The notes beneath the pieces are model-generated. The model was not told where the DNA came from. It did no database searches and worked only from the letters and a program-made list of their open reading frames with translations. Position numbers and translations under genes: made by a program. A stretch of DNA of 64,000 nt from an uncultured Acidobacteriota bacterium (lineage in GTDB: Bacteria; Acidobacteriota; Terriglobia; Terriglobales; Acidobacteriaceae). The stretch lies in NCBI GenBank assembly GCA_963745435.1, contig CAVUXK010000026.1, positions 111,739-175,738 on the forward strand, read 5' to 3'. How positions within the stretch are numbered: position 1 is the first letter of the stretch; every line of letters begins with the position of its first letter. Positions 10,977 to 64,000 of the stretch are shown here, one piece after another.

Positions 10977-11005
10977 ATGAGACAATAGTCACTCAGACCC
11001 CAAGT

Positions 11006-11030
11006 CCCGGGCGGCTTTCCGCCGCCCGGG
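11006..11030 (+). terminator. GC-rich hairpin after the receptor gene
   Basis: CCCGGGCGGC (11006-15), loop TTTCC, GCCGCCCGGG (11021-30): a 10-bp perfect stem 30 nt after the stop. There is no clear U-tract. Confidence 0.4.
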
Positions 11031-11078
11031 CACAATCTAACGGCCGTCACTCGGCCTGAGCATTCCTGGAGACTCCCG

Positions 11079-12462: not shown

Positions 12463-12521
12463 TTCGGTAGCGCCGCAGTCTCGGCGGCAGTCGTCAGGGG
12501 CGGCGGGGCGCTCGCCCGACT

Positions 12522-12538
12522 GCCGGCAAGATGCCGGC
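12522..12538. repeat. Small GC hairpin (GCCGGCA-aga-TGCCGGC)
   Basis: 7-bp perfect stem between the aminotransferase stop (12462) and the permease start (12599). It could act as a terminator or as a REP. Confidence 0.5.
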
Positions 12539-12598
12539 GCTACGAACTGCGTACGCGGAGATCAGCGTGACGCATATCGATGATCCGGGAGATGAGCA

Positions 12599-14040: not shown

Positions 14041-14070
14041 AGCGAAGTTATTAAGTTTTTGGAGAACGAT

Positions 14071-15553: not shown

Positions 15554-15554
15554 G

Positions 15555-16919: not shown

Positions 16920-17006
16920 TCTAAGAGGCAAACGTAAAGCGCCGGCAAGCCAGGTCCTGTCCTGTCGCGCACGATATTCTTCACGATAGCTGAGGCAAAA
17001 CCTACC

Positions 17007-18497: not shown

Positions 18498-18504
18498 CCT
18501 TTGT

Positions 18505-18534
18505 CGATGGAGCGACGGGCGTCCTCGCCCGTCG
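18505..18534. repeat. REP-like hairpin, family A (GATGGAGCGACGGGCG-loop-CGCCCGTCG)
   Basis: cgatggagCGACGGGCGtcctCGCCCGTCG: a 9-bp stem starting 8 nt after the mmsA stop. Confidence 0.8.
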
Positions 18535-18560
18535 AACTCCAGGGAGTTTTCGAAGCCATC

Positions 18561-31224: not shown

Positions 31225-31226
31225 CC

Positions 31227-40720: not shown

Positions 40721-43214
40721 TTATTGCACGAACACCGATACGTTGGATGTATGCGATGTGGTTCCGTCCGTGCCTGTGACGCTCACAACGTAGCTTCCCG
40801 CGGGCGTCCCGTTTCCTCCGCCTCCGCCCCCGCCCGAGCTGCTGCTGCCGCCGCAGCCTACCGCCGCTAGAATCAAAGCAACGGTGATAAGCGTGAGCGT
40901 GATCGTCAATCTCCGTCGCTTAGCAGGAATTCCAAACAGCAGGACTCCCGCGAAAACCGCGCCGCTTCCACCGAGCCACAATGGTGCTTCGCTCGGAGCA
41001 ACTCTTGCGGTCGTCGTGATGCTGACCGTCACCGTCCCGCTTTTAGTCGTGCTATTCAGCGTGATCGGGCCGCCGCTCACCGTGCAGCCGATTTTTGCCG
41101 ACGTAGGTGCTGCACACGTGAAGTTGATTGTCCCGGCAAAGCCGTTGCGCGCGTCCACCGTAATTGTCGACGATCCCGAGCCACCCGGCGAAGCAATGCC
41201 CACGACGTCACCGAACATCGAGAAGTCGGCAGCCGTCGAATTCGCGCTGCTCCAGTTGTTCACCAGTATCGCCGCATCAATCGTTCCCAGTCCGGTGACC
41301 TGGTCGTATCCCGGTCCGGCGCTGAAGCCGTACTGAGCCGTGCCCGACGTCGGGCAATCGACCGTCGCGGGATCGCACGGCACGATGTTGTTGCCCGTGG
41401 TGATGTCGTGGAACGCACCCACATTGGCCGCTGATAGCGCGTACAGCGCCGGGTTGATGTTGCCCTGCCGCGAAGCAGTCTTCTGATTCAGAATCGCCAC
41501 GATTCCGGAGAAAGTGGGCGACCCGAAGGACGTTCCGCCAAATACAGCCGGGTGTCCGGTGCTCGAAGGCAGGAAGCCATTATTGGTGCAAGGGAGGACT
41601 GGCGGTGATGCCTGCGGATCGTTCACGCAAACCATGAACCCGTCGTGATTTGGGCTAGCGGCCAACGCAATATCAGGTACATCGCGAGCTCCATCATTTG
41701 GAACTCCAGCACCAGTCTGCCAGCTCGGCTTCGAAAAAAGTAGGCTCGCTCCGCCGCCGCCAGCGGACAGCAGGTTCTCGAAGATCGTATCGTTCCACGT
41801 CGTCTCGCCGATGTAAGACTTGGCCGATCCATTCACTCCGTTGTTTGCTGCATTCCAGAAAGTCGTCGGACTGGCGGTATCGCCGTTAAACTCCGCTCCC
41901 CCAACCGACGTCACGTATGGCAATGCACCCGGAATATCCACGCCTAATCCGCCTTGCGCAGGCAACTGCGGAGCACTATCGCAATCTGCCGCCCCAAAAT
42001 CGCCGCTCGCCGCTGCGATGGTCTGACCCTGCATCGCGGCCTGCTGGGTGTTTTGTTGAACTGATGTCAGAAATCCGGATGGCAGATTCTGCTCGCAATT
42101 CCCATAACTCATGCTGAGTATCGGCGCGATATTCTGATCAATCGCATACGAGAAAGCGTCGAAGACACTTGCGTTCGTCGCGTTCCCTACGTACACAAAA
42201 ATGATCTTGGCGCCTTTCGCGACGCCGTGCGACCACTCCAGGTCGATGCTCGACTCCCCCACATCTCCCGAGACGACGGTTGCTGTGCCACTGCTAGGCA
42301 CCAGCTGCCGAACAAAGTTACTGGCCGTGCGCGCTGGCAGTCCGGCAGCCGTCCGGAACGCATCCAGGTCCGCATTGTTGACTTCAGATTGACCGGCGAC
42401 GGCGATCGACTGGCCCGTCCCATCAAAGCCGGCCGTGTATAGCGCCTTCACGTCGTAAATAGTGGTCCAGTCATCCGGACTCATGAAGTGAAGCCCGCCG
42501 CTGAAAGTAAAATTCGGCTTGACCGATTCAGCCAACGCCCGGTTCATCCGCGCGCGTGGCTTCGGCCGAAAATTACTCAACCCGTGCACTCCCAGTACCA
42601 CCTCTCCCAGAGCACTTGGTATAGATGGTTCGACGCTGTTCGCGAAGTGCGCCTCACCCTTCAGATTGAAGCGATGCATCTCTGTTCGAAAAACCGTCTC
42701 GATCTGTGACACCGTTCCACTAAACCACACCTGCGTACGCCCACGTGCCGCACGCTTCACGATGAAGCCCTGTGACTGCAGCCACGCCGTCACTTTGCTC
42801 AGATCGGCGGCGCTCAAGTCCAAACCGATCCGCATACTGCTCCGGCGTCAGCCACTTGTGGTAGCTCGGCGACTTTGGATTCTGCAAGTCGTCCAGAAAC
42901 TTTTCCGCCGCCGCATCCTGCGCCGCCGTCCGCTTGAACACCAGGGAAACGCCCTCCAGTCTCGTCGCTCCATCCATGCGCCCCTGGTCGGTCGCCTTCT
43001 GCAGCAACGGATGCACGTTGCCGAGCAACTGAACTGTGTCCCGGTCGTCAATCGCCTGCGAAATGCGGCTAGTCGCTTTGGTCTGCGAAAAAACGCTGAG
43101 CGCGATGCCCAGCGTCAGAAAAAACACCATTGCTTTCAGAATTGAGCGCACGGGCGACACTCCACTGAACTGCTGTTTGGATTTTGTGGCGTTGCTATCT
43201 CGGAATGGATTCAT
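40721..43214 (-). pseudogene. Secreted sedolisin (peptidase S53) with pro-kumamolisin activation domain, Ig-like domain and unusual C-terminal tail; one indel at ~42830
   Basis: ORF 42720..43214 holds the signal peptide and the start of the propeptide (HKWLTPEQYADRFGL). ORF 40721..42835 holds the rest of the propeptide (SAADLSKVTAWLQSQGF) and the S53 catalytic core (ESSIDLEWSHGVA, ILSMSYG, GGTSFGSPTFSG). The real start may be Met at 43130 (MVFFLTLGIALSVFSQ). Confidence 0.85.
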
Positions 43215-45304: not shown

Positions 45305-46151
45305 ATGGCGGCCTCCGTTTGGTCTGGATATCTCACCTTCGGCTTGATCTCAATGCCGGTGCGCCTTTTTTCTGGCGCTCGCAGCAGCGGTATTTCCTTC
45401 AACATGCTTCACCGCCCAGATTTGCAGCGCGTAAAGCAGCAATACTATCTGCCCGGCTGAGAACAAGGTCGTCGAGCGCAGCGAAATCGTCAAGGGCTAC
45501 GAGTTCCGCAAGGACGAGTACATCGTCATCGAGCCCGAAGAAATCAAGAAGATCGAGCCCCAGACCGCCAAGACCATGGAGATTCTCGAATTCGTTCATG
45601 CAGACGACGTCGATCCGGTCTATTTCGAGTCTTCCTACTACATGATGCCTGACGAAGCGGGACGGCGTCCGTATGCGCTCCTGACCAAGGCCCTCGAAGA
45701 GAGCAATTACGTTGCGATCGCCAAGCTCACCATGCACAACCGCGAATACACGGTCTTCCTGCGACCGCACTCCGGCGGCATGATGCTGCACACCATGTAT
45801 TACGCCGAAGAAGTCCGCCAGGTCGAAGGCTTCGGCGCTCCCGATGTCGAACTGAAAGAAGCCGAACTAAAAGTAGCGCGTCAGTTGATCGAAGCTCTCG
45901 CCGGAGATTGGGATCCGGAGAAATATCACGACTCCTTCCAGGAAAACTTGAAAAAGCTGATCGAGACGAAACTCGAAGGGGGCAAGGTAGTCGAGATCGA
46001 TCGCCCCAAGAAGCTAGCGCCGGTCGTCGATCTGATGGCAGCCCTGAAGCAAAGCCTCGCCGAAATGGAAGGCAAGAAGAAGCCGGCCGCCACCACAAAG
46101 TCCGCCCCCGAAGCCGCGGTCGCAGGAAGCAAACCGCGTCGGGGCCGATAA
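45305..46151 (+). pseudogene. ku: Non-homologous end-joining protein Ku; one indel at ~45449
   Basis: ATG at 45305 gives MAASVWSGYLTFGLISMPVRLFSGARS (Ku N-terminus), which stops after QQYYLPG. Deleting c at 45449 gives QQYYCPAENKVVERSEIVKGYEF, joining ORF 45576..46151 (VYFESSYYMMPDE..YVAIAKLTMHNREYTVFLRP). The tail is Lys-rich. Confidence 0.9.
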
Positions 46152-48938: not shown

Positions 48939-49439
48939 TTACCGTCCGGCTGAAGCCGCCATGTCCGCATGCCGCTTCCGGTTGTAGCGCAGCGCGATGT
49001 TCATGAACACGCTGCCCACCGGCGTCTCGAAGCACATCACCAGCGCCTCGGTATCTTCGCTGCTCTTGATGCCTTCCGCGGATTCGTGCATCACCGGCGG
49101 ATGCACCCGGAAGTGGAATCCCTGGTCGTTCAGTGCCGTGATCGCATTGCCGATGATCTGGTTTGCCAGTTCGCAGGCGGTCTCTTTCACAAGCAAATCG
49201 GATTCGGGCAAATCCGCCCCCGCCATCTTGCCCGCCACGCGCACCGCGGTCTCCGGATCGAGGTCAATGATGATGCGTCCCTCGATATCGCCGGTGACCC
49301 AGACCATGGCCGCCACACCCTTGCGGCGATAGGCTTCCTCTTCCATGCTGAGGCTGCCAATGGCCGTGGTGCATTGCAGGCCCTGCGCCAGCACCGCGTC
49401 CGCCGAATTGATGAACGGCTGGATCAACTCCATCTTCAT
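48939..49439 (-). CDS. CheX/CheC-family CheY-P phosphatase
   Basis: 166 aa. E-x2-N-x22-P signature in ETACELANQIIGNAITALNDQGFHFRVHPP. Last gene of the che operon. Confidence 0.7.
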   Translation of the reverse strand: MKMELIQPFINSADAVLAQGLQCTTAIGSLSMEEEAYRRKGVAAMVWVTGDIEGRIIIDLDPETAVRVAGKMAGADLPESDLLVKETACELANQIIGNAITALNDQGFHFRVHPPVMHESAEGIKSSEDTEALVMCFETPVGSVFMNIALRYNRKRHADMAASAGR

Positions 49440-49443
49440 CGAG

Positions 49444-49885
49444 TTAGGCTCCCGCGCCGGCTGCGTTCGCGACCGCGCCGTCTTCGCCCAGCACGTACTT
49501 GATCACTTCGTAGAGCACTTCCGGCTTCACCGGCTTCTGCACGAAGTGCCGCGCACCTCGCTGCAGAGCGGCCACGATGTTTTCCTGGTAGCCGACCGAC
49601 GACACCATCACGATGCGCGCTTCCGGATGCGACTGCACGATCCGTTCCGCCGCCTCGATCCCTTCCATCTGCGGCATGGTGATATCCATGAGCACGATGT
49701 CGGGATGGGTCCGGTCATATTCGGTGATGGCGGTCAGGCCATCGCCCGCCTCGCCGGCCAGAGTGCCCACCAAAGGACTCGACCATGCGGGCCAGGTTCT
49801 TGCGCGCAAAGACCGAGTCGTCCACGATCAGATAGCGGACCGGCTGCCCGTCCTTGCTGCGTTTTACTGGCGCAAACTGCTCCAT
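49444..49885 (-). pseudogene. cheY: Chemotaxis response regulator CheY; one indel at ~49775
   Basis: ATG at 49885 gives MEQFAPVKRSKDGQPVRYLIVDDSVFARKNLARMVESFGG, then the frame slips. ORF 49444..49809 continues TLAGEAGDGLTAITEYDRTHPDIVLMDITMPQMEG..MVSS..FVQKPV. Confidence 0.85.
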
Positions 49886-49901
49886 AACAACCTCCTGTTG
49901 C

Positions 49902-51061
49902 TTACCTTCGTACCATGCGGCGCTTCCGCCGGCTAGATAACCCTAGTTTTGCCCGGCGCCCGCGGCTTTCCGCTGCGCCGTTCCCTGACTGTCCGTCTCC
50001 CCGCCCGGTCTCGGCGCACAGGGCCATCAAAGTGCTTGCCATGGCCTCCAAATCCACGACCCGCGAGGCGTAACCCCGGTCGATCGCAGCCTTGGGCATG
50101 CCATACACCACGCAGGACTCTTCGCTCTGCGCGATGGTCATGCCGCCCGGCGGCCTTGACCGTGCCCAAACCTTCGGCGCCGTCGTCGCCCATGCCGGTC
50201 ATGATGACGCGCGACCGTCTGCGGGCCGAATTCTTCGGCGGCACTGCGGAACAAGCACATCCGCCGAGGGACGATGTCCGCGAATTCGCGGATCGTCGTT
50301 CAGCACGGCCACGTTGCCCAGAGGCAGTTTCTTGACCTTCAAGTGCCGGCTGCCCGGACAGATCAGAACCCGGCCCGGCATCAGCAGGTCGCCCGACTGC
50401 GCTTCCTTCACGCGCAGTGCGCAGGTCTCATCGAGCCGGCGCGCGAACATCTCCGTGAAGTTTTCCGGCATGTGCTGCACCACCACGATGGTGCCCGGAA
50501 AATCCGCCGGCAGCTGCGAGAACACGTATTGCAGCGCGTTGCGGACCGCCGGTCGAAACGCCGATCGCCACAATCTTGGTAGGCGCCTTGGTCGAAGCCA
50601 TCGGGCGCCTTGCCGTATTGCATGGTGCTGGCCAGCGGTTTCATCGTGACGCTCTTGCTGCTGGCCGCCGCCTTGATCTTCGAAATCAGCTCGGCTGCAA
50701 TCTCCGGCATGCGCGTCGAAACATCCTGCGGCTTGGCCACGAAGTCGAACGCGCCAAAGCCCAGCGCCTTCAGCGTGATCGATGCGCCTTCCGTGCTGTG
50801 CGAACTGACCACGATCACCGGCACCGGATACAACTTGCGCATGACCTGCCTCAGCATGTCGATGCCGTTCATGCCCGGCATCTCCAGATCGAGCGTGACC
50901 ACCTGCGGCTTCAGTTCTTCGATCTTCTTCAGGCCGAAGTTGCCGTCCATCGCCGTGCCCACCACCTCGATCGAGCTGTCCTTCTCGAGGATCTGCGGAA
51001 TCAGCTTGCGCATGAGCGCCGAATCATCGACCACCAGTACGCGTACCCGAGGCGCGCTCAT
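49902..51061 (-). pseudogene. cheB: Protein-glutamate methylesterase CheB; at least 3 indels
   Basis: Receiver domain in ORF 50408..51163 from Met at 51061 (RVLVVDDSALMRKLI..VTLDLEMPGMNG). The esterase domain is split over ORFs 50199..50573 (GTIVVVQHMPENFTEMFARRLDE), 49933..50244 and 49902..50141 (ESCVVYGMPKAAI). Confidence 0.85.
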
Positions 51062-53240
51062 GCCTGTCCTCCCGCGCGCCTGGCTGAAACGCGGCTCGGT
51101 CGGCGTGCGAAAGCAACAAGCCGGAACTGACCGCTCCGGCTTCGGCCGGCTGCGAGCGCGCAAAATGATCCACCACTGCCGATAAGTTCAGAATCAGTAC
51201 CACCCGTCCATCACCCAGGATCGAAGCCCCGCTTACCAGATCGGTTGAGACCGCATGGTCGTCCAACGCCTTGATGACCAACTCTTCCTCACCTTCCAGC
51301 CCATCCACGATGAGCCCGAACTTCCTCTCCCCCACGCTGATGACCAGCACAAAAAGCTTGGTCGTTCGCCCAGTCCGGCCCGCTCGCCCGCGGCCGTCCC
51401 AGCCGCACCAGCGGCAGAACCTGGTTGCGCAGCTGCAGCACTTCGTAGTGGTCGACCTGGTGGACTTCGCCTTCGCGCGTGCGCGCAATTTCGACCACCG
51501 CGTTCAGCGGGATCGCGTACAGCCGGTGCTGCACCTGGAACAGCAGCGCCTTGATGATGGCCAGCGTCAGCGGCAGTTTCAGCCGGAAGGTCGTGCCCTG
51601 TCCGGGATGCGTCTCGATGTGAACGCGTGCCCTTCAGCCGGTGCAGAACGCTCTGCACAACGTCCATGCCCACGCCGCGCCCGGAGACTTCCGTGACTTC
51701 CTCCGCCGTGCTGAATCCGGGACGAAAGATGAAATCGAAAATCTCGGCTTCGTTCAGCCGGGCCGCGTCCTCTTTCGAGTTACAGACCCATGTCGATGGC
51801 TTTCGCCCGGATGCGCTGCGCGTCCATGCCGCGCCCGTCGTCGCTGCACTTCCACAATCACCTGGTTGCCCTGGTGATACGCGCTGAGGCGCAGCGTGCC
51901 TTGCGCAGACTTGCCGGCCTTCTTCCGCTCTTCGGCCGTTTCCAGCCCGTGGCCGATAGCGTTGCGCACCAGGTGGGTCAACGGTTCGGCGATCGCGTCC
52001 AGAATGCTACTTGTCCAGGTCGGTGTCCTGTCCGCTAACCACCAGCTCGACATCTTTGCCGCACTGTCGCGCCACGTCGCGCACCATGCGCGGGAAGCGC
52101 CGGAACAGTTGTTCCACCGGCACCATGCGGATCTTCATCACCGAGCGTTGCAGATCGTTGAGAACGCGCGCCTGAAAAGCCATGGCGTCGGCGAATCGTC
52201 CGCGCAGCGCGTCTTTCGGATAGGTCTTCGCGAACTCGTTGAGCGCCTGCTGCAGCATCGATTTGCCGATGATCAGCTCGCCCACCAGGTTCAGCACGCT
52301 GTCGATACGCTCCGAATCCACCCGCAGGATGTTTTCCGCCAGCGTCGCGTGCGATTGTGGTCCGTGCTCGGCCGTGGCTTCGTGCATTTCGCCCGGTGCT
52401 TCCGGCTCGTGAAAGAGGGAAGTCTCCGGAGCAGCTGGTTCTTCGGTATCTACAGCTTTCGAAGTGCGTTTCGTCGTGCGCTTCCGCTGGTTGCGCCACT
52501 TCGCCCGGCAGCAGATCGGTCTTGACGCTGGCCACAATGGTCGGAATCTGGCACTTGGCCGACAACCTCCTCTGACGTCTTCGTCGTGGCCACCAGAAAT
52601 TCCACCTGCTTCGTCGCCGCCGGCGATCCTGCCTCCGGCCGCGCCGCCAGAACTTCGCCCAATGTCGCGAGCGCGTTCTGCACCAGCTGCCGCCCCGCAA
52701 TCGGCATGGCGCAGTGCGGATCGATCAGCGCCTGCACGTGGTACACGAAATTTCCCGCTTCCTGCGCTTTCTGCACCGCCAGCTTCTCGTACTCGGTCCA
52801 GCCCAGTGCCTTGGCGCGCTGACCGCCGCTTTCTTCTTCGCGCCGCGCTTGGTTCCTGGCTCTGCGGCGAGCTTCTTCACCATCTTGCGCAGTGGATCGC
52901 GGCAGGGCAGCTTGCCATGCTTGCGATACGCCGTCAGCATGGCAGCGAACAGGTCGGCCGCCGTGAAGGCCACTTCCGCCAAGGTCGCATGTGCGGCCGC
53001 CAACTCGAGCGCCAGCGCATCTTCGAGTTCGTGCGCGACTTCGCTCAGTTCGCGGTAACCGCAGGCTGCGGCATCGCCTTTCAGCGTGTGCACGATCCGC
53101 CGAAGGCTGCGCACAATCTCCGAATCGCCGGGATGCTTTTCGAGCTTCAGGGCTTCGTCGTTCAGCGCCTGCAGAAGTTCCTGCGCGCTCTCGAAGAAGA
53201 GTTCGCGGAGTTCGGCCATGCGCTCGTCAGGCTGGGTCAT
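51024..53240 (-). pseudogene. cheA: Chemotaxis histidine kinase CheA; about 8 frame changes
   Basis: HPt domain in ORF 52725..53240 (SLRRIVHTLKGDAAACG). P2-like segment in ORF 52450..52776. Dimerisation domain in ORF 52007..52537 (RVDSERIDSVLNLVGELIIGKS). HATPase domain in ORFs 51754..52053, 51233..51673 and 51289..51534 (PLTHLVRNAIGHG..SGRGVGMDVV). CheW-like P5 domain in ORF 51024..51488. Confidence 0.85.
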
Positions 53241-54151
53241 ACGACTTCACCTCGACCCGCTGGTAGGCGGTTCCGCTGTTGCGGTGAACCATCTGGAACT
53301 TCTCGGTCAGCCCGAGCAGGCTTTCGGCGTGTCCCACGAACAGGTAGCCGTCCGGATTCAGGCAGCGGTAGAACTTGTTGATCAGCCGCTTCTGCTCGGC
53401 CTCGTCGAAGTACATCATGACGTTGCGGCAGAAGATCACGTCGTTGCGCTGCGGCAGGTATTCCGTCTTCAGATTGTGGAAGTCGAAGTGAACCACTTCT
53501 CTTCAGCGCCTTCTTGACCGAATAGCGATCGCCCGTCTTGTCGAAATAGCGCAGCCGGTAGTTGTAGTCCACCGACGCCATCTGGTGTTCGTTGTAAGTG
53601 CCTTCCTGCCCGGCGCGCAGCACCGAGTAGCTGATGTCGCTGGCCAGGATTTCTACCTTCCACGGCGCGGGAATCAGCGGCTTTGGCGTAGGCGTTTCCA
53701 CCTGCATCGGATTGCGCATGTAGTAGTACGCCAGCGCATCGGCTACCTGCATCGCCATGGTGTAGGCTTCCTGCCCGGTCGAGCAGCCGGCGCTCCAGAA
53801 GCGCAGCGAGAAGTCGCGCCGCTCCTGCTTTTGCCGCAGCAGATCTTCCAGCACGTACTTATGGAACAGGTCCAGCTGCGCGCGGTTGCGGAAGAAGCTG
53901 GTTTCGTTGACCGTGAGATTTTCGAGCAACTGCGCCAGCTCGCCCCGTCCGGCGTCGCTGATCAGCAGCCGGTAGTAGCTGTAGAAGGAATCCACGCCGC
54001 ATTCCTTGAGACGCCGCAGCAGCCGGTCCTGCAGAAAATGCGTGCGGCGCTCGTCGAAGTGCATGCCGCACTCCTGGTACACGAGCGCCTGCAGAAGTTT
54101 CAGTTCCGCTTCGGTAAGAACGGGGGCCGGTGCCGCGCCTGAGGTGCCCAT
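53227..54151 (-). pseudogene. cheR: Chemotaxis protein methyltransferase CheR; one indel at ~53500
   Basis: ORF 53237..54151 (NETSFFRN..LRFWSAGCSTGQEAYTMAM). The C-terminal SAM-domain end lies in ORF 53227..53496 (VIFCRNVMMYFD..LNPDGYLFVGHAESL). Confidence 0.85.
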
Positions 54152-54172
54152 GGGATGTCGGTTCAGTTCTGC

Positions 54173-54700
54173 CTAACGGGCAGCCGCGCCGCGAACCTCC
54201 GCCTTGGGAGTGGCTGCTGCCTTGGCCTCGGCCGCAGCTTTCTGTGCCTTGGTGCTGCCGAACTCCAGAAGCTTGCTCGTGTCGAGCAGCATGATTAGTC
54301 GCCCCTTGTACTTGCCCAGACCGGTCACGCACCCCATTCCGCCCTCCTGCAAAACGGCCGGAGGCGGCTCAATGTCGGTGGCTGCGATCTTCAGAACTTC
54401 GGACGCTGAATCCACGATCAGCCCCGACAATCGTCCGTTGAACTCGACCACCAGGATCCGGTTTCTCCGGTTCGCGGCTGTTTCCTTCACGCCAAATCGC
54501 TTGCGCAGATCGATCACCGAGACGATCTTCCCGCGCAGGTTGATGACGCCTTCCATGTATTCCGGAGCGTCCGGCACCGCCGTGATTTCCGGCACGCGCA
54601 CGATCTCGTGCAGCGCCGTGATGGGCACGCCATAGGTCTCGTTGCCCACCTGGAAGCCGACGATCTGCAACTCGCGGTTGCTGTGCCGCTCTATGCTCAT
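54173..54700 (-). CDS. cheW: Chemotaxis coupling protein CheW
   Basis: Intact 175 aa: [60 protein letters not shown]. Confidence 0.9.
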
Positions 54701-54703
54701 GGC

Positions 54704-56693
54704 CTAGACCCCTGCGGTCGCTCGGCGCGCGATCTTGCCCGAACTCTTGTCGTTGCTGCGCGCGTGATCCACGTCTCCCGTCCGGCCTGCCACCCGCTCC
54801 AGTGCATCGAGCAGTTCGCGCGACATCTTCGACATCTGCTCCGCCGACGCCGCCAGTTCGGTCGAGCCCGACGTACGACTGCTGGATCAGTTCGCGCATG
54901 CGCTCCATGGCCTTCACCACGGCCTGAGCGCCGGAGGCCTGCTCTTCCACGGCCGAATTGATTTCGTGCGTGATCTCGTTCAGCCGCGTGGTTGCCCGCG
55001 CGATCTGCGAAGATCCGTGCGACTGTTCGTTGGTCGCCGCGCCGATCTCCTGCGCGAACTTGTAGACCTCGGTGACCACATTCGAGATCTTGCGCAACGC
55101 GCCGTTCAGTTCTCCGCCCAGTTCCAGCCCTTCGTTGACGATCGACGTGCTCTCGTCCATGTTCTCGACCGCTTTGCGGGCTTCCTTCTGAATGCTCTGG
55201 ATCAGTTCGGAAATTTCCTTGGTCGACTGCGCCGACTTCTCGGCCAGCTTGCGGACTTCATCCGCCACCACCGCAAAGCCCAGTCCGTGTTCACCGGCGC
55301 GCGCTGCTTCGATCGCCGCGTTCAATGCCAGCAGGTTGGTCTGCTCGGCCAGATCGTCGATGACCTCGATGATCTTGCCGATATCGTCTGCCCGCTGTCC
55401 GAGCGCATCGATGATCGAGCCCGACGACCGGATGGTGTTGTTGATCTTGTTCAGGCCTTCGGTGGCCTTGTCCATCGTGGTGATGCCGCTGTGGACTTCT
55501 TCGCGCGAACGGTTCGAAATGTCGAGCAGCACCTTGGCCGTGTCGGCCACGCGCTGGATCGATGCGACCATCTGGTCGATCGATGCCGACGTCTCGCTCA
55601 CGCTCGAAGCCTGCGTCTGCGTGCTCTTCACCATGTTCTGCACGTTGACGCTCATTTCGTGCATGGTGCTGGTGACTTCATCAATCGCCGACGATCCCTG
55701 CAGGCTGATCTTGGCCGATTCGTCGGAAGCTCCCGCCACCTGGCTCGAAGCGCTCGCTACCTGCGATGCCAGGTCGCGCACGCTGCGCACCAGCCCGCGC
55801 AGGCTTTCCACCATCTGCTGGAACGCGTGTCCCAGCGTGTCCTGCTTCGAGCGCGGCTCGACTTCCACCATCAGGTCGCCGTTGGCGATGGCTTCGGAAA
55901 CCGTGGCCATCTCTTTCAGGTAAGTGACCATGTTGGCGAAAGTTCTCGCCAGTTCACCAATCTCGTCTTGCCGCTGCGTGTCAATTTCAATGTTGTGGTC
56001 AAGGTCGCCCGTGTTACCGATTTTGTGCGCCACCGTCATCAGCTTGGAAAGCGGTTCGGTGATCGAACTCGCGGTCCGGTAAGCGATCCCTATGCCGATG
56101 CCAAGTGCAAGCAGCGTGCTCACGAGCGAAGCAATGAAGGTCCATTTCGCCGCAGTGTCGTCTGCTGCGTTCCGCTCATCGAGCATCTTCGTGTTCTCTT
56201 TGTCGGCGGTGTCCAGAAATTCCGTGGTGTTCTTCACCCATGCGGAAGCGTCCTTCTGCAGGTAGAAAATTTGAAGCTCTGCCACCGTCGCATTGCCGCT
56301 GTCCACGTCCTTGCGCTTGTCGACCAGCGGCTGGGAGAATTCCTTGGCCCAGTTTTGCTCGAGCTGTTGCACCTTTTCGAGCGCCGCCTTTTCCTGATCT
56401 GACGTTGCCAGTGTTTGGGTCTTTTCCAGCTTGTCGTTCAGCTGCCGGATGCCCTCATTCATCCGGTCTACTTCCCGCGTGTCGCCGCTCAGGAGATAGT
56501 TGCTCAGGTAGAGACGGTTTTGCATCATCTGGGACCGCACCGCTTCGGTTGCATCCTTAAGGTCCCGCGAGACCTTTGCCGCCGTCTTCGCGTCGTGCTC
56601 CCGGCTGATTGCTCTCCAGTTGACCCCGAACATGACCAGGACCATGAACAGAACGGCCCCAAAGTTCATGTAAAGTCTGTTGCGCAGCGTCAT
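54704..56693 (-). pseudogene. Methyl-accepting chemotaxis protein (helical periplasmic sensor, HAMP, MA domain); one indel at ~54890
   Basis: ORF 54369..56693 has TM1, a ~170-aa coiled sensor region, TM2, HAMP and the signalling hairpin [32 protein letters not shown]. After ..RMRELIQQS the correct frame continues to a TAG at 54704-06, 3 nt before the cheW ATG. Confidence 0.85.
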
Positions 56694-56762
56694 CGCTGTC
56701 CCTCCCTAGCGAACCTCGAACCAGCCTGCGTGCCCTTGGCCCGCAGACGCTTTCTCCCCGGC

Positions 56763-57125
56763 CTACTGCGTGGCAACGTTCGGATCGAACTTGAACTCCA
56801 CCACGCCTGTCGTCTCTTCCGAAGCGGCATCGAACCGCCACTTCTTCACCGCGTCCACCGCCGCATTCACCAGCAGCGGATGGCCGCCCACGACCTTCGT
56901 GCTCTTCACCGATCCGTTCGGCGCTACCACGACCTGAACCTTCACCACGCCCGAAATCGACATCCGCCGCGCCAGTTCCGGATATGTCGGAGACACCTTG
57001 GATTTCACCTTGCGCGAGATTTCTTCCTGCTGGGCCTGACCCGGCAGCGGGTACAAAAGACAAACGGCGGCGACGCCTGAAATTACGGCCCCCGCCAGCC
57101 AGCGTTGTAGTTGTTGTCGAGACAC
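56763..57125 (-). CDS. Small secreted/anchored TonB C-terminal-domain protein (120 aa)
   Basis: GTG start at 57125 with GGGAGGA 6 nt upstream. N-terminal hydrophobic segment, then a TonB_C pattern: PTYPELARRMSISGVVKVQVVVAPNGSV..VVGGHPLLVNAAVDAVKKWRF. Confidence 0.75.
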   Translation of the reverse strand: MSRQQLQRWLAGAVISGVAAVCLLYPLPGQAQQEEISRKVKSKVSPTYPELARRMSISGVVKVQVVVAPNGSVKSTKVVGGHPLLVNAAVDAVKKWRFDAASEETTGVVEFKFDPNVATQ

Positions 57126-57159
57126 AAGTCCTCCCGTGCAAAAATCCTACCCCGGGATG

Positions 57160-57176
57160 TGCAAAGCCCGTGCCAG
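57160..57176 (-). promoter_or_regulatory. Sigma-54 (-24/-12) promoter of the TonB_C-che operon
   Basis: The minus strand reads CTGGCACGGGCTTTGCA, matching TGGCACG-N4-TTGCW at every conserved position. The GC element lies ~36 nt upstream of the GTG start at 57125. Confidence 0.8.
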
Positions 57177-57476
57177 CTAAATCGTTGGGAACATTACTTT
57201 GGTGACCAGCATAAGTCGCTGTGCCAGAAGGGAATGTACCGTTGGTGACCCCTCACTGACTCACCCTGACAAATCAGAAACGTCTCATTTTTCTGCTCCA
57301 ACCCGCCCAGCTTTCTCAGGGTGAGACTCCGAGACACTACCCAAACGTGGGATTTCACAGGAAGACACCTGCGACCCTTATTCGCTTGACTCAAAATGAG
57401 ATTGCAGAGTACTTTCCCCTTATATTCAAATAACTTGTGAACATCCGGGAAAGGTCCAGGCGGTGTTTTTCTAACC

Positions 57477-60400
57477 ATGCGCGCGGGAGACACGACGCTC
57501 ATCCAGGGGCCAAACCCCAGGTCTGACGAGGCTTTTCAGAAGCTGCTCTTGCGCTTTTCCGCCGCCGCCGCGCAAGGCACCGACGTCGCTTCTCTCATCC
57601 GCCTCTTCTGCCGTGAGACGCGCGAGTTCTTCCAGGTCAGCGGTGTCTACTTCTGGCAATGCCTCTCGCCCGACGAAATGGTGGGTGCTGAAGCCGACGG
57701 CATCCGGGCCGAGAGCTTCCGCGGACTGCGCCTGAGGGCCTCGGAGAGTGCGGTCTCCGGAGAGGCCGTCCGCCGCCGCCGCACCATCTTCGTCAATTTT
57801 CTCGACTCCACCCGCTATCCGCGAGCCTTCGAATTTAACGCCCGCTCCATCATGGCCGCCCCCCTGGTCGTATCGAACGAAGTGCTTGGCGCGGTTGCCT
57901 TTATCCATGATTCCGATCCTGGCTACTTCAACGAAGATCTGGCCGCCAAGGCGACCATCGTTGCCGGGCAGCTCGGCAGCCTGCTCGAAGCCCGCCGCCT
58001 GACCGAGGCCTCCCGCGAGGACCACCGCCGTGCTGAAATCCTGGCCGAAGTCGCCCATGCCCTGCACGGCAATCCCGACGTCGCCGCCGTCATCGAAGCC
58101 TTAGCCGATCGCATCCGCGTCCTGCTGCGCGCCCGCCTGGTCTGCGTGTTCATGCGGCAGGATGGACCCTTTGAGTTGCGCGGCGTCGCCGCTGAGACTT
58201 CCCAATTGGCCAACTCGGCCCGCGCACGCCACGACCGCACCGCACTCCGTTTCGCCGCCGACGTCGCCGGCCGCGCCGTTTCCGCCGGAGAGCCGATCAC
58301 GGTATCGATCGACCCAGCCTCCCATTCTCTCGGCGACCTGGTGCCCTCCGGAATGCTCCTGGCCGCTCCCTTCCGCACTTCCCGCACGCAGGGCGCGATC
58401 CTCGTCTACCCGCGCGCCGACGGCATTTTCACCAACGATGAAAGATCGCTGGTCTCGGCCGTCGCCGGATTCGGAGCGGTTGCCGTCGCCAACGCCGAGC
58501 TCTATTCCACCGCCCGCAACCAGGCTCACGAACTTCACCAGCTTCTGGAGATCTCCACCGAACTTCGCTCCGTCGGCAACCTGGATCGCTTCCTGGAAGC
58601 CTTCGTCGTGCGCGCCGCCGACTTCCTGGGCTTCGGACGGTGCTTCATCGGCCTGCTCGAGGAAGGGAAGTTTCGCGTCCGCCTGGGCGCAGAAAAAGGT
58701 CAGGCTCGCCACGTCGATCTCACGTTTCCCGATGGCATTGCCACCAAGGCCCTGATCGCGAAAGAAGTTTTCTGGACCGACGATGCCAGCCAGCTTCCCG
58801 GCGCCAACGCTAAAGCCATCCTCGAAGTTCGCCATCAAGCAAATCCTGGCCGTGCCTCTGCTCGGCTCCGACGGTGAAGTCATGGGCATGTTTGGCGTGC
58901 TCGACCGGCTGGATCTGGCGGGGATCACTGAAGAAGATATTCGCCGTGCCCGCGCTCTCGCCGCGCAGGTATCAGTCGCGCTCGAAGTGATGCGAAACTT
59001 GCATTCCTCCGAGCAGCACCGAAAACACGCCGAGGCCTTGATGGGCCTGTCGTTCGAGCTCAGCAGTCTGGTGCACCTGCCCGATTTCAACCGCCGCTTC
59101 GTGTATCGTGCCGCCGAGCTTTCCGGCGCAAAGTCAGCAGCGCTCGCGCTCTTCGAAGACTCCGCCCTCGAGCTCCACCGTCCTCTATGACACCTCGCGG
59201 CCCGAGCCCTCCGACCGCAGTCTCGAACGTCGCCTCACCCATTCCCTCACCGAATCTCTTGCCCAGCACGCCGAACGCCTCTACTCGGGGCAAGCCGCCG
59301 ACCTGTTGGGCTCAGCGCTTTCCGCCGCCCTCGGCTGGAAAGATTGCACCATCCTTCGCCTCACCGGCGCCGGGGACGAAGTCGGTCGGCGTCCTGTGCC
59401 TTGCGGATCGAGGCAAGGCGCTGCCCCCAGCCGACGAGCAACTCCTGCACGCCATCGCCAGCCACGCCTCGGTTGCCCTCGAAAATGCGCGCCTGTTCAC
59501 GCGCATGGACAAAGCCAACCGCCACTGGATGGAGATTTTCGACGCCATCACCGACTACATCGTCGTGCATGACGGGGCCCAGCAAGTTCTGCGGGTGAAC
59601 CGCTCACTCGCGGAATTCATCGGCGTGCCGCCCAGCGAATTGATCGGCGTCAACATGCGCGCCCTTGTCTCCCTCGCCAGCGATGCGCCTGCGCCCGGTT
59701 GCCCCTTCTGCCGCAACGCCATGGACGGCCCCGACGAATACGTCCATCAGGTCCTCGAGCGCATGTACCTGGTCTCGACTTCGCGCATTCACGCCTCCGC
59801 CGGAGAAGGTCAGCACACTATTCATGTTCTGAAGGACATCACGGATCGCCGCGAAGCCGAGCGCCGTTACCGTGAACTCTTCGACAATATTCAGGAAGGC
59901 CTCTTCTTCGCCGTCCCCGACGGACACTTCATTGAAGTCAACGACGCACTGGTCCGCATGCTGGGCTACGCCGACCGCGAAGAACTCCTCAAAATCGATA
60001 TCCCGACCCAGCTCTACACTTCACCCGAACGCCTGCGGCACCTGAATCAGGTCATGCAGCAGCACGGCGTGCTGCGCAATCACGAGGAAGTTCTCCGCCG
60101 CAAAGACGGAGGCGCCATCCACGTCCTGATCAACGCCTTCGCCGTTCCCGACGCTCACGGACAGGTGCTCCAATACCGTGGCCTTATGCTCGACATCACC
60201 GGACTCAAGACTTACCAGTCTGAACTGCAGCGCGCCCGCGACTTCTCCGAGAAGATTCTGAACAACACCCAGAGCCTGATCCTGGTGGTCGACACGGCCG
60301 GGCTGATCAGCTACGCCAACCGCCGCTGGTACGAAGCCGGCTACGAGCACAGCCAACTCATTGGCCGTCCGCTCGCCGATCTCGTCTCGCCGCCCCGCCG

Positions 60401-61326
60401 TCCTGTGCTCGCCGATGCCCTCAATTCCACGCTCTCCGGCCACCCGGTCGATAACCTCGATCTGCAAGTCCTGCGCGGCGACGGCCGGGTCGGCCAGTTC
60501 TCCGTGAACCTCAGCCCCATGCGCGACGAGCAGGGCATCGTCACCAGCATCGTGGTCGTGATGACCGACATCACCGACTCCGCCATGCTGCAGTCGAAAC
60601 TCATTCACGCCGAAAAGATGGCCGCTGTCGGTCAACTCGTCTCCGGCGTCGCCCACGAAGTCAACAATCCGCTGACCGCCATCCTCGGCTTCGCCGACCT
60701 GCTCATCGAGAACGCGGAGACTGCCCGAGGCTGCCCGCAAAGACCTGCGCGTCATCCTGCAGGAAGCGCAACGCACCAAGCAGATCGTGCAGAACCTGCT
60801 CAGCTTCGCGCGCCAGATGCCACCGCAGCGCAAGCCCGTCCAGCTCAACGGAATTTTGCGCCGCACCATCCAGCTGCGCGCCTACGACTTCAACAGCCAC
60901 GGCGTCGAGATCGTCGAGCACCTCGATGAAAGCCTGCCCCAGGTGGTGGGAGATTCCCACCAGCTGCAGCAGGTTTTTCTTAACATCATGAACAACGCCT
61001 ACGACGCGGTGCGGGAGACTGGTCGCCCCGCGCGCATCGAAATCATGACCGCCAGCCTCGGCAACCATGTCGAGGTGTCGTTCCGCGACAACGGTCATGG
61101 CATCACTCACCCCGATCGCATCTTCGATCCATTCTTCACCACCAAAGAAGTGGGGAAGGGAACTGGCCTGGGCCTGAGCATCTGCTACGGCATCGTGCGC
61201 GAACATGGCGGCGAAATCCTGTGCCACAACAATTCTGGAACCCAGGGCGCGACGTTCATCGTTCGCTTGCCCGGCCTTTCTGAGTCGGCCTCCAAAGGTG
61301 TGGCCGCGGGAGTTCTACAACGATGA
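57477..61326 (+). pseudogene. Soluble multi-sensor histidine kinase (4 GAF + 3 PAS + HisKA + HATPase_c, ~1280 aa); 4 indels
   Basis: The frames join as 57477..~58825, ~58825..~59170, ~59170..~59385, ~59385..~60715 and ~60715..61326. H-box SGVAHEVNNPLTAILGFADLL, N-box NIMNNAYDA, G-boxes DNGHGI and GTGLGLSICYGIV. No TM segment seen. Confidence 0.85.
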
Positions 61327-61724
61327 GTCTGCCAGCAATGAAGCCTGAACCCTTGCCCATCCTTCTTATCGAAGACGAGCCGGCCGTCATGGCTTACGTC
61401 TCGGCCACGCTCGAGCGCAGCGGCTATCAGGTCGTCAGCGCAAAGTCGGGCGCGGAGGGCTTGCAAATGCTTGAGTCGGGAGAATTCCTCGGAGTCGTCT
61501 CCGACATGGTGACGCCCGGGGGCGTCAATGGTGCCGATGTGCACGCCTGGATCGCGACTCATCGGCCCGAACTAGCCTCGAGGCTCGTCTTCATCACCGG
61601 CGACATCGCCAACGAGCAAACCGTCGAAACGCTGCGCCGCACGGGCGCTCCCTGCGTGGAGAAGCCCTTTCGCGTCCAGCAATTTATCTCGGTCGTAGAA
61701 AAGACCATGGGGAAAGCGCTGTGA
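61323..61724 (+). CDS. Single-domain (CheY-like) response regulator
   Basis: 133 aa: ILLIEDEP..VVSDMVTPGG..FITGD..EKPF. Its start overlaps the kinase stop (ATGA). Confidence 0.85.
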   Translation: MSLPAMKPEPLPILLIEDEPAVMAYVSATLERSGYQVVSAKSGAEGLQMLESGEFLGVVSDMVTPGGVNGADVHAWIATHRPELASRLVFITGDIANEQTVETLRRTGAPCVEKPFRVQQFISVVEKTMGKAL

Positions 61725-63127
61725 GTGAAGACCTTCGGATCCGGTTGTTGATTGTCGATGACGAGCAAAGCATTCGCCGCTTGTGCGTCACCGTGGGAGA
61801 GGCCCTGGGATTTGTCTGTCTGGAGGCGGCCAGTGGCGAAACCGCTCTCGCCCTGCTCGAAGAGCAACCCGCCCACATGATCCTCACCGATATGGTCATG
61901 CCGCACATGTCGGGCCTGGAGTTTCTGGAGAAAGTGAAGAAGCTGTTGCCGCGCACGGAAATCGCCGTCATGACCGGCCACGGCTCGGTCGAAACCGCCG
62001 TCCAGGCCATGAAGCTCGGCGCCTACGACTACATCGCGAAGCCCTTCTCCCCGCTGGAAGAATTGCGCCTGTTCCTCCGCCGCATGGCCGAAAAAGTCCG
62101 TCTCGTCGAAGAAAACCAGTTCCTGCGCGATCGCATGGACACCGAGACCCAGCTGCACGGCATCGTCGGCTCCTCTGCGAAGATTCAGGACGTTCTGCGC
62201 ATGGTCTCGCGTCTGAAAGACACGCGCACACCCGTGCTCATCACCGGCGAGAGCGGCACTGGAAAAGAACTGGTCGCCCGCGCCATCCACTTCCGCGGGT
62301 CATTCGCGAACCGCCCCTTCGTCGCCGTCGATTGCGGCTCGCTGGTTCCCACGCTCATCGAAAGCGAACTCTTCGGCTACGAAAAAGGCGCCTTTACCGG
62401 AGCCCTGAAGGCGAGAACCGGCCTGTTCCAGTCCGCTGACGGCGGCACCATCTTCCTCGACGAAATCGGCGAACTCCCGCTCGAGATGCAAGCCAAGCTC
62501 CTGCGCGTCCTGCAGGAGAAAGAAGTCCGCCCCGTCGGCAGCAACCAGCGCACCCGCGTCGACGTGCGCGTCATCGCCGCCACCAATCGCGATCTCGAAC
62601 AGGAATATCGCGCCGGCACTTTCCGCAAAGACCTCTACTTCCGCTTGAACGTTGTCACCGTCCATGTTCCAGCGCTCCGCGAGCGCCGCTCCGACATCCC
62701 GATGCTCGCCCACTGGTTCCTCGAGCGTTGCGTCCCCGGACGCAGCGTCCAGGTCACCAACGCGGCCATGAAATCCCTGCTCCAATACGACTGGCCAGGC
62801 AATGTGCGCGAACTGGAAAATTGCGTCGAGCGCGCTGTCGCCCTCGGCAACCAGCAGACCCTCGACGTCGACGACCTGCCCCCGGCAATCGCCTCCACTT
62901 CTCAGCCGCAGGAACGCGACACCGGCGGCCCCGGCCCCGGCCTCTCCACCACCGACCTCGAAGACATCGAGCGCACCACCATCGAGCGCGTCTTCGAACA
63001 AGTAAAAGGAGACAAAGCGCTAGCCGGAAAAATGCTCGGCATCAGCCGCGCCACGCTCTATCGCAAACTAAAGCGCTACAACATCGGCGCCCGCCAGCAC
63101 GCCATCTCAAGCCAAGCCCTTCAGTAA
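61721..63127 (+). CDS. NtrC-family sigma-54-dependent response regulator (REC + AAA+ with GAFTGA + Fis HTH)
   Basis: Intact 468 aa. REC domain [19 protein letters not shown]+ domain [38 protein letters not shown] domain [15 protein letters not shown]. The GTG start overlaps the upstream stop (GTGA). Confidence 0.9.
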
Positions 63128-63142
63128 GAAGTGAACGAACTG

Positions 63143-63174
63143 AACGATGGAGCGACGGGCGTCCCCGCCCGTCG
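63143..63174. repeat. REP-like hairpin, family A
   Basis: aacgatggagCGACGGGCGtcccCGCCCGTCG, 16 nt after the NtrC-like stop. The core is identical to 18505..18534 apart from one loop base. Confidence 0.8.
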
Positions 63175-63612
63175 TGCGGACGGAATCCCTGCTTCCGGGG
63201 AAAAAATCCATCGATAACAGCGGTCCAATCTTAGAAAATTGTGAGACAGCAGTCTCATCCTGAGACAAGATCGCTGATCTGGACCTCCATCCCTTCATCG
63301 GCCCCCACTCCCTCAATCTTCTTTTCAGCCACTTACGTCCGAGTACTTCCGGTTTTTGCTTTGGTTTTCCCCGTGCATATACAGAGGCCGTAGCAAGCGG
63401 ACCCGATAGGCTCCCATAAGAACTCTTTCAAACCGGGAAGAGGGGAGCCCGTGACCGCCCTTCGAGGTTGACCTTGGGAAAACGAGCCCATGTCGTCGAT
63501 TCTTCCACGCTCTTTGTCGTGGTGGCGCGCCTGGCCCGATTCGCTGCATCACAGTCCTCCCCTTCGATTTCATTTGCACCCAACCTCCCCCAACTGACCG
63601 GACTTCAAAATC

Positions 63613-64000
63613 ATGACTGACCTCAGCCAACTCACTGCCGAGTGGAACGCCGCTCGCATCCTCTATCCGACTTACTCCGCGCTGGCGCGTGAGTTTGTCA
63701 TCGACCTCACTCCGTGCAACGACCTCGAAACCAGCGTCGACCAGCCGCCCCAGGAGTCTGTCGAGCAGGCCCGGCAGTGGCTGGATGATATGGATGAGCG
63801 CATCCAGATTCACCAGCTCCGCCAGTTCCTGCAGACTACGACGCTCGTCACCCCGCAACTGTTGCAGACCATGCTGCTGCACCACCTGCACAAAGACGAG
63901 AAGTCGCCTTCGGATCGCGACAAGATCGATTTCCTGATCGTCCAGCTGTTCTCCCTGGCTGCACCGTCGCGCCTGGAAGACAGCTCGGTCACGATCGCGT
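63613..64000 (+). CDS. Hypothetical protein, N-terminal 129 codons (runs off window)
   Basis: Open frame from ATG 63613: MTDLSQLTAEWNAARILYPTYSALAREFVIDL..DKIDFLIVQLFSLAAPSRLEDSS. The ORF track shows no stop in this frame before the window edge. No family recognised. Confidence 0.45.
   Translation, partial: MTDLSQLTAEWNAARILYPTYSALAREFVIDLTPCNDLETSVDQPPQESVEQARQWLDDMDERIQIHQLRQFLQTTTLVTPQLLQTMLLHHLHKDEKSPSDRDKIDFLIVQLFSLAAPSRLEDSSVTIA

Follow-up and report, generated by a model that had tools for sequence, protein, structure and literature searches.

Can a two-component system with a soluble kinase decide whether a bacterium makes a whole chemosensory pathway? The question is raised by a locus in a stretch of 64,000 nucleotides (64 kb, hereafter the window) from an uncultured Acidobacteriota bacterium (GenBank assembly GCA_963745435.1, contig CAVUXK010000026.1), in which positions 48939-63127 carry a sensor kinase, a stand-alone receiver and an NtrC-type enhancer-binding protein (EBP) back to back with an eight-gene che operon. 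An earlier note, written by a model that saw the letters and a list of open reading frames (ORFs), had described these genes as a self-contained module: the kinase would read an intracellular signal and phosphorylate the EBP, which would switch on a sigma-54-driven che operon. Comparison with related loci revealed that the gene order, the sigma-54 promoter and the palindromic sites upstream of it are conserved. We propose a conserved signalling locus of the class Terriglobia, in which the two-component system switches on chemosensory genes via sigma-54.

The two divergent operons and their linkage in relatives

The plus-strand operon contains three genes. Here and below, proteins interrupted by insertions are described from translations stitched across the insertion sites.

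57477-61326, plus strand: sensor histidine kinase, 1281 aa stitched, broken by four 1-nt insertions near 58827, 59169, 59382 and 60722
61323-61724, plus strand: stand-alone receiver, 133 aa, intact (Pfam Response_reg)
61721-63127, plus strand: NtrC-type EBP, 468 aa, intact (Pfam REC, Sigma54_activat, AAA_lid_14 and HTH_8)

The EBP has all the parts of a group I (NtrC-type) activator, namely a receiver, an AAA+ domain with the GAFTGA and Walker A and B motifs, and a Fis-type helix-turn-helix. In the receiver (Pfam Response_reg, E = 5e-27) the motifs DDE, TDMVMP, MTGHG and AKPF are legible in the translation. The AAA+ domain matches Sigma54_activat over positions 1-167 of the 168-position Pfam profile (E = 2e-70) and shows the GAFTGA loop, Walker A GESGTGKE and Walker B FLDEIGE, while the C-terminus matches HTH_8 over positions 2-42 of 42 (E = 5e-11). 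The earlier note had called the GAFTGA loop and the Fis domain intact and this protein the sole sigma-54 activator of the window, and both statements are borne out, as a tblastn search of the 64 kb with the EBP AAA+ core matched itself only and found no second activator. Within the conserved locus, no further gene codes for a DNA-binding protein.

Assignment of the EBP to a named orthologue (AtoC, NtrC, ZraR, FlgR, FlbD and others) was rejected, since no NCBIfam equivalog cut-off was reached; the top match, AtoC, scored 440 bits against a cut-off of 714, and the JGI label 'AtoC' is an automatic annotation. The closest solved structures are the Aquifex NtrC1/NtrC4-type proteins, ZraR and NifA, with FlrC and FleQ also among the PDB matches. 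No database record identical to the EBP was found. More than 120 protein clusters are at least 90% identical to it, and the locus is very common in soil.

The kinase was said to be a cytoplasmic protein of about 1280 aa with four GAF and three PAS domains. Its length is indeed 1281 aa after stitching, and exactly 1281 aa in the intact orthologue of the locus whose EBP is 98% identical (L161), but in the window it is not a single ORF. The region falls into five frame segments, the listed ORFs 57477-58877, 58783-59190, 59187-60929 and 60787-61326 lie in alternating frames, and one insertion falls inside HisKA, whose Pfam profile is divided between two frames (positions 2-30 and 31-62). The stitched protein contains three PAS domains, three clear GAF domains, HisKA and HATPase_c; the fourth GAF is a weak partial Pfam match (E = 0.007). 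The H, N, G1, F and G2 boxes are legible in the stitched sequence, not in one reading frame of the window. Hydropathy analysis of the kinase found no convincing transmembrane segment, so that the description as cytoplasmic is reasonable. Placement in a named orthologue group (AtoS and others) was rejected, the top match AtoS being well under its NCBIfam cut-off.

The kinases of Illumina-type metagenome-assembled genomes (MAGs) measure 808-1334 aa. Across the loci L001-L013 the range is 665-1402 aa through gain and loss of N-terminal GAF/PAS modules, with a constant PAS-HisKA-HATPase core; in L002 and L012, both long-read MAGs, the kinase ORFs are fragmented too.

The translational coupling claimed for these three genes is real at both junctions, where the kinase stop and the receiver start overlap as ATGA and the receiver stop and the GTG start of the EBP overlap as GTGA. 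The stand-alone receiver is 57-80% identical in all MAG loci that extend that far, except L011, in whose locus no match was found.

The minus-strand operon runs in the order tonB_C-mcp-cheW-cheR-cheA-cheB-cheY-cheX.

56763-57125, minus strand: TonB_C protein, 120 aa, intact (Pfam TonB_C, E = 7e-18; NCBIfam tonB_Cterm)
54704-56693, minus strand: methyl-accepting chemotaxis protein (MCP), about 660 aa, broken by one insertion near 54875 (Pfam, hydropathy)
54173-54700, minus strand: cheW, 175 aa, intact (Pfam CheW, E = 3.7e-40)
53242-54151, minus strand: cheR methyltransferase, 302 aa stitched, one insertion near 53500
51090-53240 (3' end approximate), minus strand: cheA, eight insertions at 52812 (2 nt), 52557, 52479, 52006, 51845, 51782, 51625 and 51368
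49990-51061 (3' end approximate), minus strand: cheB (receiver and methylesterase), five 1-nt insertions at 50601, 50542, 50252, 50210 and 50145
49444-49885, minus strand: cheY, single receiver, about 146 aa, one 1-nt insertion near 49763 (Pfam Response_reg, E = 3e-25)
48939-49439, minus strand: cheX, CheY-P phosphatase-type, last gene, 166 aa, intact (Pfam CheX PF13690, E = 1.6e-16)

The core chemosensory set of MCP, CheW, CheA and CheY, together with CheR and CheB, was matched by Pfam on intact or stitched translations. The TonB_C protein, encoded by the first gene after the promoter, combines a hydrophobic N-terminal anchor or signal with a TonB C-terminal domain, and its gene was found in 10 of the 12 MAG loci and in nearly every metagenome locus. 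The MCP has two transmembrane segments, a 4HB/CHASE3-like periplasmic part, HAMP and MCPsignal. Stitched CheA contains Hpt, P2 (weak), dimerisation, HATPase_c and CheW-like domains in Pfam; its relatives are intact at 695-723 aa (695-709 aa in Illumina-type MAGs), as are those of CheR at 301-303 aa. Stitched CheY is 89-97% identical to its relatives as a single alignment segment. CheX is 74-95% identical to relatives from soil metagenomes, and its match to the NCBIfam model CheX_Thtogales is under the cut-off. The operon thus ends, as the earlier note had it, in a CheY-type receiver and CheX, the former interrupted by one insertion. The statement that no flagellar or pilus gene is in view also stands, as Pfam matched none anywhere in the window and none was found within 10 kb in the relatives.

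The linkage of the two operons was followed in two scans. The first, for the EBP in one genome per species, yielded 12 loci with flanks, whose EBPs are 70-88% identical, and a thirteenth, L005, that stops at the EBP. In all 12 the kinase and EBP, with the receiver where present, diverge from MCP-CheW-CheR-CheA-CheB, preceded in most by TonB_C. These MAGs belong to the class Terriglobia, comprising Terriglobales, including Ca. Sulfotelmatobacter, and Ca. Acidiferrales, while one is labelled Binatia. No che genes adjoin EBPs whose identity is 50% or lower. L161 has the same gene order with every gene intact. The second scan, for CheX in metagenomes, gave 80 soil contigs, 29 of which reach far enough for the operon and the kinase; all 29 have the complete eight-gene operon with the kinase diverging from it, and each stitched window protein aligns there as one full-length segment. 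In close relatives the operon stops after CheX, and the beta-propeller and Ku genes that come next, in convergent orientation, are those also seen in the window. The linkage of EBP and che genes is strict in 43 loci from at least two orders. The earlier note had named a lack of synteny in relatives as a finding that would speak against its reading; synteny was instead found to be kept in the 12 MAG loci, in L161 and in the 29 soil-metagenome contigs.

The control regions and the proposed circuit

The intergenic control region shared by the two operons (57126-57476) measures 351 bp, in agreement with the roughly 350 bp reported before. It contains the following elements.

57161-57175, minus strand: sigma-54 promoter (-24/-12) TGGCACGGGCTTTGC, TGGCAC-N5-TTGC with zero mismatches
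57282-57287, no strand assigned: half-site GTCTCA, which reads TGAGAC on the che strand, some 107 nt upstream of -24, invariant block T194-C199 in alignment A1
57314-57327, no strand assigned: proximal dyad TCTCAGGGTGAGAC (TCTCA-N3-TGAGA), about 140 nt upstream of -24, putative EBP binding site (upstream activating sequence)
57389-57401, within the block 57386-57415, plus strand: distal dyad ACTCAAAATGAGA, about 215 nt upstream of -24, invariant TCAwTTTGAGTCAA in A1

The sigma-54 promoter predicted ahead of the che operon is perfect, and TGGCACGGGCTTTGC is the only zero-mismatch match to TGGCAC-N5-TTGC in the 64 kb. However, the first gene behind it is that of the TonB_C protein and not a che gene; a GGAGGA ribosome-binding site and then the GTG start of this gene lie about 35 nt downstream of the promoter. 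The 13 aligned control regions (alignment A1) share few invariant blocks, which are TGG...TGC of the promoter, TGAGAC, GTCTCA-N3-TGAGA and TCTCAwTTTGAGTCAAG. The promoter is kept in all 43 related loci. In the metagenome loci it is present with at most two mismatches in 29/29; in L003 and L004 the promoter at the homologous position is weaker, with GG and TTGC retained. A second sigma-54 site at 57207-57225 (TGGCAC, wrong spacing) was rejected because it is not conserved.

The distal dyad is kept in all syntenic loci and both TCTCA-N3-TGAG(A) dyads in nearly all; among the metagenome loci the distal dyad was found in 29/29 and the proximal in 27/29. The dyads keep a fixed distance to the -24 element, about 130-150 and 190-245 nt across relatives, and in each of the 13 loci the half-site lies at +107 to +121. 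Between invariant arms, the 3 nt of the spacer are free to vary (GAA, GGA, CGT, AAT, AGG, CTC) in the 13 and a further 27 loci, which is the signature of a palindrome bound by a dimeric DNA-binding protein. In the window, the dyad has three matches at one mismatch or fewer, all in the two intergenic regions that flank the EBP operon.

A direct repeat, GGGAAC...TGGTGACC, was also noticed at 57187-57250, between the sigma-54 promoter and the dyads. Its copies GGGAACATTACTTTGGTGACC and GGGAATGTACCGTTGGTGACC lie 43 nt apart; it is not conserved as such in relatives and may be a site for a bending protein or a product of chance.

On the plus strand the distal block reads CTTGACTCAAAwTGAGAT, with a conserved TAnnTT 17-18 nt after TTGACT. 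The sequence TTGACT (57386-57391), N18, TACTTT (57410-57415) resembles a sigma-70 promoter of the kinase operon and overlaps the distal dyad. A sigma-70 consensus scanner found no match in the control region, so that the argument for this candidate is its conservation. The overlap of the distal dyad with the -35 element suggests autoregulation.

A second control region lies 3' of the EBP gene.

63242-63266, plus strand: dyad cluster TGAGAC-N4-GTCTCA-N3-TGAGAC, the same dyad as upstream of che (dyad match 63253-63265)
63362-63376, plus strand: sigma-54-like element TGGTTTTCCCCGTGC (GG-N10-GC), in a fixed position 108 nt past the dyad
63613-64000 (cut by the window end), plus strand: conserved gene without a family match, 350-560 aa in relatives, conserved in all loci by tblastx

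The dyad cluster and the GG-N10-GC element occur in every orthologous locus that extends that far. The arms of the cluster are invariant in alignment A2, and TGG...TGC of the element is invariant in nine aligned loci. The offset from the dyad to GG-N10-GC is 108 nt in the window, in L003 (TGGCTCCCCCCTTGC) and in L010, and 129-131 nt in L006, L008, L009 and L011. Pfam and NCBIfam gave no match for the gene that starts at 63613. In the clade of the window this gene is followed by a HisKA-only protein and then a CheR-like methyltransferase (L161, 11408-14723); in a deeper clade, the second control region is followed by a receiver, CheW, MCP, CheR, a hybrid CheA-REC with two Hpt domains and CheB (L011, 13447-21095). 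The module is therefore not self-contained, in contrast to the earlier claim, because a second control region with the same dyad precedes genes beyond the window, which in some relatives form a second che cluster.

A conserved hairpin was observed at 63409-63449, in what is presumably the leader of the downstream operon (GGCTCCC...CTCTTTC-AAACCG-GGAAGAG-GGGAGCC). Its loop, wAACCGG, is invariant in nine loci and its stem varies by clade (CTCTTCC/GGAAGAG against GCCrTGC/GCAGGC). Consensus folding with RNAalifold gave weak covariation support, and an Rfam scan of 56600-64000 returned nothing meaningful, the hairpin included.

Whether the neighbouring activator is the one that acts at the che promoter is the central point. 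The two operons might be neighbours without a functional link, with another EBP, for example a flagellar master regulator, serving the che promoter, this EBP regulating genes elsewhere and the dyads belonging to another regulator. That flagellar regulators control che genes via sigma-54 is known from Pseudomonas and Vibrio. Moreover, several Geobacter che clusters have predicted sigma-54 promoters with no adjacent EBP (PMC2577667), and the dyads are putative EBP sites. We nevertheless regard this arrangement as highly improbable, on account of the strict linkage of EBP and che genes, the absence of any other DNA-binding protein encoded in the locus, and the distribution of the dyads. In 271 kb of orthologous loci 17 exact dyads were found, all at the two control regions that flank the EBP operon in every 21-kb locus, compared with one in 995 kb around unrelated EBPs, an enrichment of about 60-fold.

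On sequence comparison, we consider with moderate confidence that the EBP activates the che operon through the dyads and the sigma-54 promoter, and we propose the following circuit. The kinase, the receiver and the EBP would be made from one translationally coupled operon with a sigma-70-type promoter, TTGACT-N18-TAnnTT. An intracellular ligand or state would be sensed by the GAF/PAS array of the kinase, which would then phosphorylate the receiver domain of the EBP, with the stand-alone receiver probably acting as a competing phosphate acceptor. Upon phosphorylation, the EBP would bind the TCTCA-N3-TGAGA dyads, which lie about 140 and some 215 bp upstream of the sigma-54 promoter, and activate the divergent eight-gene che operon. 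The dyad and the sigma-54-type element 3' of the EBP gene are predicted to drive a second target operon. In addition, the EBP may repress its own sigma-70 promoter, an autoregulation like that at E. coli glnAp1/p2.

With respect to the cascade drawn in the earlier note, comparison backs its core, as synteny, promoter and dyads are conserved; from these we infer phosphotransfer from the kinase, DNA binding by the EBP, activation of the che operon and autoregulation. Several points weigh against the circuit. The connection of the EBP with the dyads and the promoter is a putative one drawn from sequence comparison, and a regulator whose gene lies elsewhere could occupy the dyads instead. The downstream element TGGTTTTCCCCGTGC is weak as a sigma-54 site, with 4 mismatches to the 10 specified bases and a position about 240 nt before the next start codon. 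In addition, no rpoN gene was seen in the 64-kb window.

Frameshifts in the window

The earlier note did not mention frameshifts. The genes of the EBP, the receiver, TonB_C, CheW and CheX are intact, but about 20 frameshifts in the remaining genes had escaped notice. Their sites were mapped by frameshift-aware protein-to-DNA alignment and by DNA alignments to L088 (80% nucleotide identity) and L161 (90%). The 13.8 kb of coding sequence in the module contains 20 frameshifting insertions, of which the kinase has 4, MCP 1, CheR 1, CheA 8, CheB 5 and CheY 1. In MCP the site is identical with three reference proteins, and the insertion near 54875 makes the listed MCP ORF run out of frame across cheW. 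The CheA sites are the same with three independent reference proteins, and the DNA alignments agree; those in CheB were mapped against the intact CheB of L011 by frameshift-aware alignment and by DNA alignment to L088.

These frameshifts might be real and the module a decaying pseudogene cluster, with a pathway that is non-functional in this genome and working in its relatives. The spectrum of the changes argues against decay. All 20 are insertions, 19 of 1 nt and one of 2 nt, with no deletion, unlike natural indel spectra. The stitched proteins have complete domain sets without an internal stop, and lineage-specific substitutions are not raised (295, compared with 283-388 in sister lineages). 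Genes outside the module are also split, with consecutive Pfam profile coordinates, at 2161-3256, 4375-6122, 8388-10976, 10989-12462, 13852-15553, 29926-31158, 40928-43196 and 45459-46130. Among the split genes are those of an ABC ATPase, an amidohydrolase, a class-III aminotransferase, an aldehyde dehydrogenase, lnt, a sedolisin and Ku, while that of the TonB-dependent receptor (8388-10976) falls into five or more pieces. Moreover, every gene is intact in L161, the genome with the 98% identical EBP.

Three observations point the other way. The frameshift density in the module and the TonB-dependent receptor gene is about 6 times that in the rest of the window, the insertions lie outside homopolymers, and the fraction of window-specific substitutions at third codon positions is 0.50 as against 0.58-0.70 in relatives, although third positions are still favoured. 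On balance, decay appears very unlikely to us. The all-insertion spectrum, the lack of nonsense codons, the damage to unrelated genes and the relatives with every gene intact, down to a kinase of exactly 1281 aa in L161, make sequence error likely. The roughly 20 frameshifts are thus most likely sequence or assembly errors and not biology, and such single-base indel errors seem to run through the entire window, unevenly spread.

Two other origins were rejected: homopolymer slippage, since no insertion has a homopolymer context, and programmed frameshifting, since the 20 sites share no motif. A genuine programmed +1 site, CTT TGA C at 31294 with an AGGAG-like sequence upstream, is present in prfB (release factor 2; 31176-32329, plus strand). 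Given the many single-base insertions, gene calls from the window are untrustworthy without correction. Whether the frameshifts are error or decay, the biology of the locus is readable from the clade.

Comparison with known systems and meaning of the locus

Literature searches found no report of this arrangement in Acidobacteria, nor of an EBP divergent from a che operon, in line with the earlier note, whose author was aware of no such description. The point has to be tempered, as a close analogue exists and sigma-54 promoters of che operons are known or predicted. Judged by gene arrangement and published description, the closest described system appears to be CrdS/CrdA-Che3 of Myxococcus xanthus. 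There, the NtrC-like CrdA, the kinase CrdS and a che cluster adjoin, CheA3 acts as a phosphatase on CrdA~P, and the targets of CrdA are stated to be not known (PMC3147164). In both systems two-component and chemosensory signalling are joined, an NtrC-like sigma-54 activator and a kinase lie beside a cluster with MCP, CheW, CheA, CheB and CheR, and the cluster is accompanied by the gene of a small envelope-associated protein.

The likeness raises the question of whether signals flow in the opposite direction, as in Che3. The EBP would then be chiefly an output, the adjacent CheA would phosphorylate or dephosphorylate the EBP or the receiver, and the kinase would provide a second input, so that the locus would govern gene expression as an alternative cellular function and not motility; such wiring could coexist with transcriptional control of che. 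It would agree with the effect of CheA3, which destabilises CrdA~P (PMC3147164), with the small envelope protein at the head of the operon (TonB_C here, OmpA-type CrdB there) and with the lack of flagellar and pilus genes nearby. In addition, the second che cluster directly 3' of the EBP in deeper relatives encodes a hybrid CheA-REC, in the manner of CheA3, together with a separate receiver.

However, the che operon of the window differs from Che3. It has its own CheY and CheX, whereas the Che3 cluster is without either, and its CheA ends in a CheW-like domain without the C-terminal receiver of the hybrid CheA3; hybrid CheA-REC proteins are found only in the second cluster of deeper relatives, such as L011. 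CrdS is a membrane kinase with HAMP, in contrast to the soluble GAF/PAS kinase here, and the stand-alone receiver is an extra component. The conserved sigma-54 promoter and dyads before che, which distinguish this locus from Che3, point to control from the EBP to the che genes. The acidic pockets differ as well, being of DDE/EDE type in the EBP and the stand-alone receiver and of the DDS..R motif in CheY and CheB, although this is read directly from the sequences and is weak evidence. Taken together, we find Che3-like wiring unlikely. A combined arrangement, which we likewise consider unlikely, would make the EBP a hub that induces one or two che pathways while their CheA proteins phosphorylate or dephosphorylate the EBP or the receiver, forming a feedback circuit that does not serve swimming, in soil Terriglobia that are widespread and for the most part uncultured.

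The preferred reading, in which the EBP activates the che operon, has partial precedents in other bacteria. One chemosensory operon out of two in Rhodobacter sphaeroides, said to be cheOp3, is reportedly sigma-54-dependent, to judge from the title of work by Martin et al. in 2006. For Geobacter che clusters, sigma-54 promoters are predicted upstream (PMC2577667). As far as these sources go, they share with the present locus a che operon transcribed from a -24/-12 promoter and not from the sigma-28 promoter of the enteric paradigm, and differ from it in having no dedicated kinase-receiver-EBP operon divergent from che and no defined site for a shared activator.

In FleS/FleR of Pseudomonas and FlrB/FlrC of Vibrio, a soluble PAS kinase is co-transcribed with an NtrC-type EBP that acts at sigma-54 motility promoters. 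The soluble PAS-containing kinase and the NtrC-type EBP in one operon are common to these systems and the present locus. In contrast, theirs lie in flagellar clusters and have hook and basal-body targets, whereas here no flagellar gene is in view and the predicted targets are che genes; the EBP is also no closer to FlrC than to NtrC1, ZraR or NifA.

With E. coli NtrB/NtrC the likeness is in the promoter architecture. At glnAp1/glnAp2, the activator has dyad sites 100-200 bp upstream of a sigma-54 promoter, one of which extends over a sigma-70 promoter. A dyad over a sigma-70 promoter is found here too, and the activator would both activate and, probably, repress. The site itself is different (TCTCA-N3-TGAGA here, TGCACC-N5-GGTGCA for NtrC), as are the target genes and the signal, and the operons here diverge.

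Elsewhere in the window, an ABC importer with two permeases, an ATPase with a TOBE domain and a solute-binding protein is encoded at 474-4301 (minus strand), and three class-III aminotransferases, two aldehyde dehydrogenases and an amino-acid permease at 10989-19814 (plus strand); together these look like a region for amine or polyamine/GABA-type utilisation. A further GAF-based signalling protein, a GAF-SpoIIE (PP2C-type) phosphatase, is encoded at 34771-35982 (minus strand).

Acidobacteriota are among the most abundant soil bacteria, and to our knowledge almost nothing is known of how they regulate behaviour. The locus offers a concrete regulon prediction of one kinase, one activator, a 13-bp dyad and two sigma-54 promoters, present in at least two orders and common in soil. 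To a specialist the prediction is plausible rather than startling, and it is unusually well defined for experiment. If it is true, it would be a second case beside Myxococcus Che3/CrdSA, with the direction running from the activator to the che genes, and the expression of a whole chemosensory pathway would depend on an intracellular signal read by a GAF/PAS kinase.

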